A stretch of DNA of 34,435 nucleotides from a virus. Its lineage: Duplodnaviria; Heunggongvirae; Uroviricota; Caudoviricetes. Position numbers: made by a program. The DNA is taken from IMG/VR virus record IMGVR_UViG_2529293069_000011. One strand, given 5' to 3'. Positions 30,001 through 33,000 of the stretch are shown piece after piece (the first letter of the stretch is position 1; every line of letters begins with the position of its first letter).

Positions 30001-33000
30001 TGGTGTTGATGGTGCCATCGAGATGACCGAAGAGCGCGATGGGTGGCTCAAAATTTATAGCGATGATCCAGATGCCTTTGGTCTTCGTGTGAAAGGAGAC
30101 AGCATGTGGCCCAGAATAAAATCAGGAGAATATGTACTCATTGAGCCTAACACCAAAGTATTCCCGGGTGATGAGGTGTTTGTCAGAACCGTTGAAGGAC
30201 ACAACATGATTAAGGTTCTTGGCTATGACAGAGATGGAGAATACCAATTTACAAGCATTAACCAGGATCACAGGCCTATAACGTTGCCTTATCATCAAGT
30301 AGCAAAGGTGGAGTATGTGGCTGGTATTCTGAAGCAATCTCGCCATCTGGATGACATCGAGGCAAGGGAGTGGCTGAAAAGTTCGTGACTTCATCGTCAC
30401 ATAGCTGATAGCCAGTGGCCTGAAGAGACGTTTGGGTGATAGGAAGTAAGTTTTATGTTGACGGCACAGTCAACTTGGCATAGATTAATTAAACCAAGCC
30501 CAGCCCCGTTCGCAGACAATTGTTAATATCTGCATAACGGCTCTGGGCTATTTTTTTTGGGACTCTTATGAAGAAAGCAGCAATTTTAATTGATGCGGGT
30601 TTTTCATGCAGCGTGTTCATGCTACGCATCGTAAACACTTCGCCGAGCATGAACTGACTGGTGGGAAGATCGAAAAAAAGCAAGCCTAGAGGAAAAAACA
30701 ATAGCGGTAAACGCAGGTATGGAAACACTCAAGCTGAGTCTGCAAAGAAACATCAAAGAAATAAACGATAATCCCATCAACCCGGCCACCGAGCCGGGTT
30801 TTCTTTGCCTCACGATCCCCCCACCTAAAAAACATAACCAATTGTATTTATTGAAAAATTGATAGATACAACTTGCTAAACAACGCAATCCAGATCTCCC
30901 TCAAATCTCTTTATTTATCCTGTCGAATTCCTACAACAAAATAAAACACCATAAGAATCAATACGATATTTGAAAACCAAGAGAATTTATCATTTTGCTA
31001 TTGCCATTAATTTATCATTCCGATAAAGTTCACCCATCAGCAGGACGCACTACTCACCATGGCGGTGAATATACAACGATTCGAATATGAATCTACGGCG
31101 CTGACAAAGCGCAATAACCAAAGTGAACTTTGGGGTGTGGTGAAGGGTTCATGGACGGGAATATGTCGCACGTAAAGCGGCGAGGCCTGCGGGACTATTG
31201 CCGAATTGAAGTAGGCCGAAACAGGTCGAAATGGGTCTCCCACCTACCACACCACCAAAGTTCATCAGGAGGTCTATATGACACGCAGAACTCAGTTCAA
31301 AGGCAATTCACGTTCTCGTCGTCGTGAGCGTTTAAAGGCAAAGGCATTAGCTAACGGCGTGCTGGCCCGCGAAGAAGCAATAAGTTCAGAAGTATTACAC
31401 CGCCCTACTCTAAGCAGAGCGCAGATTCAGGCTAAAGGTACTCACGAAACGCCTGAGCGCATAGAAGACGCTAAGCCAATTAAGTTCATGGCACAGGACG
31501 TGATCTGGCAACAGAAAGAATACAGACGCAATCTGGAGCGAGCGGCCATTGTGTACGCGAATGAGTTTGGACATAAGCAACCAGAAACTGGTGTATGTCT
31601 TCCAAACGTAGCTCTTTACGCGGCAGGCTACCGGAAATCAAAACAACTGACAGCAAGATGACTTGTGTTGGTCGCCAGAAAATGAAATTAGGCAGCAAAC
31701 CACTTATTTGAGGTGAGATATGACAAAATCATGGAGCGTACCTTTTCCTGAATCAGAAACTGAACATGATGGAATGCCTGTTTTCTGGAGATTCCAGGCG
31801 ACAGTTGAAGAAGATGGGATAAAAATATTCGCACTTCAATATATAGCTTTTCATCAGACAGAGCATTATGCATGGTTGGTTCCTGCGCATTGGATTGTTA
31901 ATTTTAAACCAGCACCAAATCAGTGGTTACAGGAATGGAAACAAAAGAGAAATAGATATGCAATTAAGAAAGTAGCAAAAAATGCAGAAAGATCTTTTGC
32001 ATTCCCAACGAAGAAACTTGCCATTGAAAGTTTATTGCGCCGGAAGAAATACCATTTAATGAGAATCAAACAAGATTTGGCTGTTGTATCAACTCTTGTT
32101 GATGGGATGAAGAATATTGATACATCAATACCAGATATTGAATATAACTTTGGACACAACCAAGAAACAGAAAATTGGGTATTTTATTAGTACGAATAAG
32201 CACTGTGTATTCATTCCAGCGAGTGAATACACGGAGCAATGTCGCTCGTAACTAAACAGGAGCCGACTTGTTCTGATTATTGGAAATCTTCTTTGCCCTC
32301 CAGTGTGAGGGCCTTTTTATATGCATACCAATAACGCTTCACTCGAGGCGTTTTTCGTTATGTATAAATAAGGAGCACACCATGCAATATGCCATTGCAG
32401 GGTGGCCTGTTGCTGGCTGCCCTTCCGAATCTTTACTTGAGCGAATCACCCGTAAATTACGTGACGGATGGAAACGCCTTATCGACATACTTAATCAGCC
32501 AGGAGTTCCAAAAAATGGATAAAACACTTATGGCTATCCAGACTAAATTCACTATCGCCACTTTTATTGGCGATGAAAAGATGTTTCGTGAAGCCGTCGA
32601 CGCTTATAAAAAATGGATATTAATACAGAAACTGAGATCAAGCAAAAGCATTCACTACCCCCCTTTCCTGTTTTCCTAATCAGCCTGGCATTTCGCGGGC
32701 GATATTTTCACAGCCATTTTCAGGAGTTCAGCCATGAACGCTTATTACATTCAGGATCGTCTTGAGGCTCAGAGCTGGGAGCGTCACTACCAGCAGATCG
32801 CCCGTGAAGAGAAAGAGGCAGAACTGGCAGACGACATGGAAAAAGGCCTGCCCCAGCACCTGTTTGAATCGCTATGCATCGATCATTTGCAACGCCACGG
32901 GGCCAGCAAAAAAGCCATTACCCGTGCGTTTGATGACGATGTTGAGTTTCAGGAGCGCATGGCAGAACACATCCGGTACATGGTTGAAACCATTGCTCAC

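Follow-up and report, generated by a model that had tools for sequence, protein, structure and literature searches.

A decayed NYN nuclease gene and its conserved leader hairpin in the cI-to-N interval of a lambdoid Stx-type prophage

Results

The cI-to-N interval and the features it contains

The stretch of DNA analysed here, IMG/VR virus record IMGVR_UViG_2529293069_000011 (34,435 nucleotides, referred to below as the window), is a lambdoid prophage of the Stx type, and its orientation is opposite to that of the standard lambda map. The interval between cI and N (30389-31277, 889 bp), which is 99.9% identical to the Stx1 phage AU5Stx1 and to Stx2_EH0505, probably holds a wrecked gene for an NYN-domain nuclease, bracketed by the gene's own leader hairpin (hairpin 1) and a t_imm-type terminator (hairpin 2); we put the probability of this reading at roughly 0.8. 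A preliminary description of this DNA had stated that rexAB is missing from the interval and that no credible long open reading frame (ORF) is present, and the ORF scan bears this out: no rexA or rexB coding sequence was found between cI and OL in 30389-31277. The longest ORFs of the interval, of 79 and 88 amino acids, are both on the minus strand, and because both cross the deletion junction listed below (30654-30660) they are by-products of that deletion and were rejected as genes. The interval, its borders and the parts of the putative NYN cassette are as follows.

29684-30388, plus strand: cI, the left border; an ORF of 234 amino acids encoding a LexA-family repressor (Peptidase_S24 match, E 3.8e-16), labelled cI in AU5Stx1.
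30410-30907, plus strand: what is left of a mobile NYN cassette, comprising its promoter, leader hairpin, decayed coding sequence, terminator and spacer, delimited by blastn to phage 2B8.
30458-30486, plus strand: candidate sigma-70-like promoter of the NYN cassette (TTGACG, 17 nt, TAGATT), from a consensus scan.
30497-30558, plus strand: hairpin 1, the NYN-leader RNA hairpin with its U-run, from the fold, a covariance model and covariation.
30568-30657, plus strand: N-terminal stump of the NYN gene, a 29-codon ORF, from blastn to 2B8 and translation.
30654-30660, plus strand: deletion junction, with one copy of the 7-bp repeat CTGACTG left and 652 bp missing.
30661-30771, plus strand: C-terminal remnant of the NYN gene, a 36-codon ORF with the basic tail ...KPRGKNNSGKRRYGNTQAESAKKHQRNKR and the native stop codon at 30769-30771.
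30779-30807, plus strand: hairpin 2, a predicted intrinsic terminator and homologue of the lambda t_imm region, from a terminator scan, the fold and lambda homology.
31278-31661, plus strand: N antiterminator gene, the right border; 127 amino acids (PF25694 N_peptide, E 9.8e-16), the protein being 99.2% identical to 933W N.

An NYN gene in two fused pieces

The blastn comparison with phage 2B8 gave two matching pieces: window positions 30410-30660 correspond to 2501-2751 of the 2B8 locus (L002) with 99% identity, and positions 30654-30907 correspond to 3397-3653 of the same locus with 94% identity. The homology begins 22 nt past the cI stop codon, although the repressor genes of the two phages differ. 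Between the two matching pieces, 2B8 has the body of an 858-bp gene annotated as encoding an NYN domain-containing protein. Because the two alignments overlap on CTGACTG, we conclude that a deletion between 7-bp direct repeats removed the 652 bp. An opposite course of events, in which the 858-bp gene was a late insertion, is contradicted by the continuity of the intact gene in frame together with the 7-bp repeat at the junction.

Three lesions mark the window copy: a T6-to-T5 frameshift, the 652-bp deletion and a GG-to-G frameshift. The first frameshift (T5 in place of T6 at 30600-30604) lies past codon 12, the second (G in place of GG at about 30680) is in the C-terminal remnant, and the deletion takes approximately residues 31-247 of the 285-residue protein, including the entire Pfam NYN match (158-205) and the invariant GDSDF motif. 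The intact gene is translated as MKKAAILIDAGFFMQ...HQRNKR*, as against the window ORFs MKKAAILIDAGFSCS... and ...KPRGKNNSGKRRYGNTQAESAKKHQRNKR; in the former of these only codons 1-12 are native (MKKAAILIDAGF), and the remainder is out of frame. The coding sequence that survives therefore amounts to the 12-codon native N-terminus and a C-terminal tail, and an intact NYN frame bearing the catalytic domain is absent from the window locus. With 652 bp missing and two frameshifts, no NYN protein should be possible from this copy, and the locus, to judge from these lesions, is a pseudogene. An equivalent 110-bp stump in Escherichia coli strain 472 is annotated by PGAP as a pseudogene, "frameshifted; incomplete".

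These results bear directly on the proposal in the preliminary description that the inter-hairpin segment could be expressed as a short transcript, either a small RNA or a micro-ORF, with the 29-codon ORF at 30568-30657 as an example. The ORF scan did recover this ORF; what it encodes is 12 native NYN codons and a frameshifted tail, and the segment as a whole consists of the two fused ends of the 858-bp gene, recognizable at 99% and 94% identity. A consensus scan detected no promoter-like site between the hairpins.

The exact junction sequence was found in 2 of 5,426 complete E. coli genomes, in addition to phages AU5Stx1 and Stx2_EH0505. The missing segment (645 bp) is complete, representing an intact-type gene, in 74 of these genomes, and a 3'-truncated NYN copy is present in about 200 of them, for example in the CP-933H remnant of O157:H7. 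From these counts we conclude that the window allele is a rare, recent decay product and not a conserved small gene. Conservation and covariance had been suggested as a check on the region, and the outcome was divided: with its junction in so few genomes the inter-hairpin unit is not conserved, whereas hairpin 1 shows strong covariation, as described below.

In the O157:H7 CP-933H remnants (L004/L005, 2533-3048) the same promoter and hairpin 1 precede the 3'-truncated NYN gene, which encodes 127-129 amino acids; in one strain the truncated gene is interrupted by an IS3 element.

The intact NYN protein and its family

The intact protein of 285 amino acids, carried by phage 2B8 (H3V34_gp46) and by Proteus phage Brookers (gp44), matches the NYN family PF01936 (E 6.8e-9) over residues 158-205. 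A model of this protein made with AlphaFold2 (AF2; mean predicted local distance difference test score, pLDDT, 86) had the NYN endoribonuclease domain of MARF1 as its best fold match in the PDB, with a probability of 1.00 and a template modelling (TM) score of 0.69; the rest of the fold search yielded Rossmann-like folds of a generic kind with low TM scores, leaving the MARF1 NYN domain as the only convincing one. A sequence search of the PDB with the NYN profile gave no match.

The family comprises 7,034 matches at E <= 1e-5, from Enterobacterales, Pasteurellaceae, Pseudomonas, Acinetobacter, Shewanella and others. The gene is solitary, in that no protein partner is conserved beside it. It is often found downstream of a cI-like repressor gene (2B8, Brookers, Tatumella and locus L142), and elsewhere it adjoins integrases or sits in ordinary chromosomal surroundings.

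Structure and setting of hairpin 1

Hairpin 1 consists of a 53-nt stem structure (30497-30549) followed by an A and by T8 (U8 in the RNA) at 30551-30558. It has helices of 7, 5 and 5 bp, two internal loops and a 12-nt apical loop (CAAUUGUUAAUA). The minimum free energy (MFE) of the fold, calculated over 77 nt, was -25.8 kcal/mol (z = -3.93), and none of 200 shuffled sequences was as stable. The simple terminator scan missed this hairpin because the stem is long and interrupted. Both hairpins of the preliminary description are supported by their folds (z = -3.93 for hairpin 1 and -3.07 for hairpin 2), they lie about 220 nt apart as had been claimed, and both have the anatomy of a terminator on the plus strand, which is the lysogenic strand.

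Hairpin 1 is located 109 nt past the cI stop codon and 9 nt upstream of the NYN start codon. The putative promoter at 30458-30486, if active, would place the start of transcription about 4 nt ahead of the stem (approximately 30493). A palindrome, TTGAC-N6-GTCAA (30458-30473), overlaps the -35 hexamer of this promoter and looks like an operator, a role that we regard as putative. A palindrome of this kind, TTGAC-N6..9-GTCAA, recurs at enteric and Pseudomonas NYN loci. A candidate internal promoter within hairpin 1 was rejected by eye, its hexamers being about 23 nt apart.

The same arrangement is found at homologous loci, where TTGAC lies 37-42 nt upstream of the stem base in almost all cases and TAnnnT follows at a spacing of the -10 type. 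At the NYN loci the stem is followed by 5-9 U residues, with the start codon 9-26 nt later. Searches of Rfam 15 (E <= 1) found no family covering hairpin 1 or hairpin 2 in the window, nor any covering hairpin 1 in six diverse NYN loci. Tandem Repeats Finder detected nothing in 30389-31277, and a single hairpin is present at every NYN locus.

Distribution and covariation of hairpin 1

The hairpin is conserved well beyond the close relatives of the window. Proteus phage Brookers, which is P22-like, matches the window over 62 nt that comprise hairpin 1 alone, and this match lies between its repressor gene and its NYN gene. The Brookers and 2B8 NYN proteins are 74% identical and their coding sequences are 67% identical in nucleotides, as compared with 49 of 53 identical positions in the hairpin; more generally, hairpin 1 shows 89-96% identity where the nucleotide identity of the coding sequence is 67-74%. 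Among the NYN loci that we gathered from GTDB genomes and IMG/VR, the promoter-hairpin-NYN layout occurs in Tatumella, Yersinia, Photorhabdus, Xenorhabdus and many viral contigs. A covariance model of the hairpin (R1) matched 34 distinct NYN loci, directly upstream of the NYN homologues, and reached homologues of about 45-58% protein identity in Ewingella, Pasteurella, Acinetobacter, Pseudomonas and others. In IMG/VR the hairpin core was matched exactly 41 times, always within NYN loci or NYN remnants.

The substitutions in these hairpins preserve pairing. In the close set, 5 of the 17 base pairs were changed on both sides and none on one side only. Across 35 diverse matches, 13 of the 17 pairs showed compensatory changes and 96% of the cells of the alignment were paired; the covariation score was reached by 0 of 500 shuffles, and slid controls were paired at 24-42%. 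RNAalifold, applied to an independent MAFFT alignment, returned the same three-segment hairpin with 13 of 17 compensatory pairs. The presence of G-U pairs favours an RNA of the plus strand over DNA or a minus-strand RNA. Conservation across clades extends, well past the needs of pairing, to the internal loops and to a motif of the apical loop, AAU..UUA. One stable fold would by itself be poor proof of a structure. Support for the hairpin, drawn from covariation over at least 30 distinct homologous loci, is far beyond chance. On this evidence hairpin 1 is an RNA structure under selection that is carried by the cassette, has the anatomy of a terminator and lies in the predicted 5' leader of the NYN gene, and the NYN leader hairpin is an uncatalogued, well-supported RNA motif across gamma-proteobacteria.

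Hairpin 2 as a predicted t_imm-type terminator

Hairpin 2 was called by the terminator scan. Its stem occupies 30779-30800, and TTTTCTTT comes next, up to 30807; the stem contains 8 pairs, 6 of them G-C, and the MFE is -14.5 kcal/mol. Together with the following 100 nt or so, hairpin 2 is 87.5% identical to lambda prophage DNA that begins at the rexB stop codon. The breakpoint of homology with mEp506 and with many Stx1a phages is at 30778-30780, precisely at the base of hairpin 2. In a comparison of five phages, among them lambda, 2B8, mEp506 and 2013C-3277, the stem and the U-tract were invariant and the cargo upstream differed. Taken together, the homology at the rexB stop codon, the breakpoint and the invariance of stem and U-tract identify hairpin 2 as a predicted terminator of the t_imm type, which would close the lysogenic transcription unit made up of cI and its cargo. 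Hairpin 2 and the OL/PL, nutL and N region together make up a conserved module, and the hairpin travels with the PL side.

Other features of the interval and its surroundings

The following features lie within the interval or near it.

30719-30862 (equivalent positions), plus strand: AU5Stx1_260 (GenBank KU977419), a hypothetical protein of 47 amino acids.
30984-31029, plus strand: putative OL/PL region, recognized from repeats and a promoter-like site.
31098-31112, plus strand: nutL boxB hairpin (GCGCUGACAAAGCGC), from the fold.
31123-31142 with 31243-31263, plus strand: long-range stem of the N leader, ending just ahead of the N Shine-Dalgarno sequence.
29337-29570, minus strand: cro.

The 47-residue hypothetical protein is the only annotation in this interval of AU5Stx1. 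Its ORF begins within the C-terminal NYN remnant in a different frame, overlaps the native 3' end of the NYN gene and crosses hairpin 2; because of this start in another frame and the reading through a terminator hairpin, it is probably a spurious call.

Downstream of hairpin 2, the sequence at 30808-30907 (about 100 nt) is conserved with lambda, 2B8, mEp506 and 2013C-3277 despite differing cargo upstream and differing operators downstream, and it may contain upstream elements of PL. In the OL/PL region, AATTTATCATT occurs twice (30984-30994 and 31009-31019) and overlaps a PL-like promoter (TTGCCA, 17 nt, TAAAGT; 31001-31029). These repeats are candidate operators; related half-sites of the TTTATC type are found in the cI-cro intergenic region (29600-29665).

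The boxB hairpin of nutL has a twin, UCGCUGACAAAGCGA, at the nutR position downstream of cro (29284-29298, minus strand), for which 0.12 matches were expected by chance. As compared, the pair consists of GCGCTGACAAAGCGC at 31098-31112 (plus strand) and TCGCTGACAAAGCGA at 29284-29298 (minus strand); both have the loop GACAA, and the closing pair is U-A in one and G-C in the other, a compensatory difference. No boxA was recognized beside either boxB. The N leader, folded over 31090-31295, gave an MFE of -74.1 kcal/mol (z -3.75), with 0 of 200 shuffles as stable, and its stem at 31123-31263 resembles the RNase III-sensitive structure of the lambda N leader.

The sole Rfam match in the window that scored above the gathering score was a full-length, lambda-type cIII thermoregulator RNA (RF01804) at 32369-32427 (plus strand; 88.5 bits, E 1.7e-21). 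A match to STnc310 at 29676-29731 (22.5 bits, E 0.5) was below the gathering score.

Discussion

A model for the cassette and its remnant

The locus is a case of ordinary gene decay in a known hotspot, to which one uncatalogued leader RNA motif is added. We propose that the slot once held a self-contained, single-gene cassette for an NYN-domain (PIN-like) nuclease, which has since been destroyed. In intact cassettes, transcripts coming from PRM through cI and transcripts from the cassette promoter would both meet hairpin 1, which would act as an intrinsic terminator and stop most of them, so that the nuclease would be produced by read-through alone. Low read-through would keep a potentially toxic RNase scarce and insulated from the strong lysogenic transcript, and one could envisage from the invariant loops that the leader is recognized by a protein, possibly the NYN nuclease itself. 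Hairpin 1 is most likely a leader of the terminator type that throttles nuclease expression. In the window prophage, where promoter and hairpin 1 are intact, the outcome would be an orphan RNA of about 65 nt (approximately 30493 to 30558); slight read-through would give a relic transcript, the messenger of a dead gene, ending at hairpin 2, and no protein product is expected. The candidate for a discrete small transcript would accordingly be hairpin 1 itself, with its promoter (30458-30486) and U8, rather than the segment after it.

Several observations weigh against this model or leave part of the data unexplained by it. Use of the promoter, the efficiency of termination at both hairpins and the RNA of about 65 nt are all predicted from sequence. 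Simple attenuation is insufficient to account for all of the conservation, because a plain terminator or insulator needs no invariant loops. The fold of 30440-30585 contained only the terminator hairpin and the upstream DNA palindrome region; no alternative antiterminator structure appeared in it, although a systematic search for a downstream competitor was not made, and an upstream competitor would not be possible because the predicted start lies about 4 nt before the stem. The record of Shigella phage vB_Shi_2KOFFS, a virulent member of the Chaseviridae (PV615261.1, L009), contains at 3-63 a copy of hairpin 1 with 98% identity and a tail of T4 only; this copy is at the start of the record with no NYN gene nearby, and it could be either a real acquisition or an artefact of the assembly end. 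With respect to the protein, PADLOC gave weak, partial matches for intact NYN (HEC-09, E 2e-4; NYN, E 1.4e-3), for which reason membership of a known defence system was not accepted, and our literature search found no report of the NYN family as a phage defence.

Alternative explanations

The alternative that survives best is that the RNA of hairpin 1 works together with the NYN protein as its partner, serving as an antitoxin, an inhibitor or an autoregulatory binding or cleavage site in the manner of type III systems, and that it persists here as an orphan small RNA. The RNA would be present in excess because most transcripts would stop at the U-run. The conserved order of promoter, hairpin, U-run and RNase gene agrees with such a role, as do the internal loops and the AAU..UUA motif, which exceed what a terminator needs, the stronger conservation of the hairpin relative to the coding sequence, the solitary gene and the modelled NYN RNase fold. 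However, the RNA has no tandem repeats of the kind seen in type III antitoxin RNAs, the fold is that of NYN and not ToxN/AbiQ-like, the toxicity and RNA binding of NYN are putative, and a search of the literature found no support for them; we consider this explanation unlikely. A bolder form of it, in which hairpin 1 represents an undescribed RNA class, the "NYN leader", acting as inhibitor, antitoxin or sensor for a widespread, solitary prophage RNase of defence or addiction, with an orphan RNA of about 65 nt left in this lysogen, seems to us slightly less probable again.

Hairpin 1 could also be a plain terminator of the cI transcript (from PRM or PRE) and belong to the immunity module. Its distance of 109 nt from the cI stop codon, its strand and its terminator anatomy fit this view, which is nevertheless improbable: the 2B8 homology starts 22 nt past the cI stop, the hairpin follows the NYN gene behind unrelated repressors in 2B8 and Brookers and is also found at non-prophage NYN loci such as those of Ewingella and Pseudomonas, and the near-identical cI of 2013C-3277 precedes different DNA. 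As part of the NYN cassette, hairpin 1 probably does stop cI transcripts here, as a by-product of the site where the cassette landed.

It is more doubtful still that hairpin 1 functions at the level of DNA, whether it would serve as a self-immunity site resembling aba, for recombination or as a palindrome bound by a protein. Its position is the 5' edge of a cargo gene in the slot that also houses bstA with the 63-bp aba (PMC8585504), its sequence is very highly conserved, and a copy occurs in the record of an unrelated virulent phage. On the other hand, the compensatory changes maintain pairing, the G-U pairs are on the plus strand only, a sense-strand U-run always follows and a promoter precedes, and aba acts via direct repeats and not via a hairpin.

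Least credible, and by the comparative data already largely refuted, is a dedicated small RNA or micro-ORF gene in the inter-hairpin segment (about 30559-30778), expressed from the lysogenic transcript, for which the two bracketing terminator-like hairpins and the short ORFs, including the annotated 47-residue one, might be cited, but which has to contend with the fused ends of the 858-bp gene, a 29-codon ORF that is mostly frameshifted, a junction in 2 of 5,426 genomes, no internal promoter-like site, no Rfam match, and a 47-residue ORF that is out of frame with the NYN 3' end it overlaps and continues across the terminator hairpin.

What the locus means

With the decayed cassette as the preferred explanation, the "empty" cI-N interval in a Stx prophage of the AU5Stx1 type is an accessory slot that has decayed, and to this extent our result is mostly one of tidying up: none of the short ORFs of the interval, including the one annotated in GenBank, should count as a gene. 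The NYN nuclease can be added to rexAB, bstA, hicABC and others in the list of cargo of the repressor-adjacent hotspot, and for that reason it is a credible candidate for a gene of prophage defence or exclusion. The NYN leader offers a compact case of how a potentially toxic RNase might be restrained. Hairpin 1 is also a candidate small RNA in lysogens of enterohaemorrhagic E. coli, since the O157:H7 CP-933H remnant retains the same hairpin; a literature search on CP-933H small RNAs and on the hairpin 1 sequence found nothing specific.

Comparison with known systems

In lambdoid phages, the cI-N interval serves as the slot for a variable set of accessory genes. Its cargo is rexAB in lambda, NYN in 2B8 and Brookers, and HicABC in mEp506. 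In mEp506 (L003, 1366-2496) a HicA/HicB/HicC operon is followed by the same terminator, PL and N module. In 2013C-3277 (L006, 2269-2775) a near-identical cI is followed by hypothetical genes of 120 and 42 amino acids, neither of which had a match in Pfam or PADLOC.

With the cI-rexA-rexB/t_imm arrangement of lambda, the window shares the map position (cI to OL/PL), the strand and the terminator region after rexB, which is all that is homologous to the lambda rexAB locus. The cargo differs, being unrelated to RexA and RexB; it was formerly a single NYN gene with its own putative promoter and leader, and is now a pseudogene. The cassettes of 2B8 and Brookers agree with the window in promoter, leader hairpin, context of the start codon and position after a LexA-family repressor; unlike these intact cassettes, the window copy is short of 652 bp and is frameshifted twice.

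Type III toxin-antitoxin loci of the ToxIN kind have the order promoter, structured RNA, intrinsic terminator and endoribonuclease gene. The NYN cassette has the same order of elements, with a U-run between RNA and nuclease gene in all loci, but the NYN loci are without a tandem-repeat RNA and the protein has the NYN fold rather than the ToxN fold. Hairpin 1 also resembles terminator-type 5' leaders and attenuators, in which a hairpin and a U-run lie between the start site and the start codon. It differs from attenuators in general in that its loops are unusually conserved, it belongs to no Rfam 15 family and no competing antiterminator fold was identified.

A further parallel is provided by bstA. 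The cI-N region has been described as a mosaic hotspot, with rexAB or, as in BTP1, bstA for its cargo, and aba as a 63-bp DNA-based element at the 5' end of bstA that works via terminal direct repeats (Owen et al., PMC8585504). The BstA-aba arrangement of BTP1 and P22-like prophages, in which a defence gene lies downstream of the repressor gene, shares with the NYN cassette the slot, the single accessory gene and a conserved element of about 60 nt across its 5' edge. The two differ in that the proteins are unrelated and that hairpin 1 has covariation of the RNA type, G-U pairs and a U-run.

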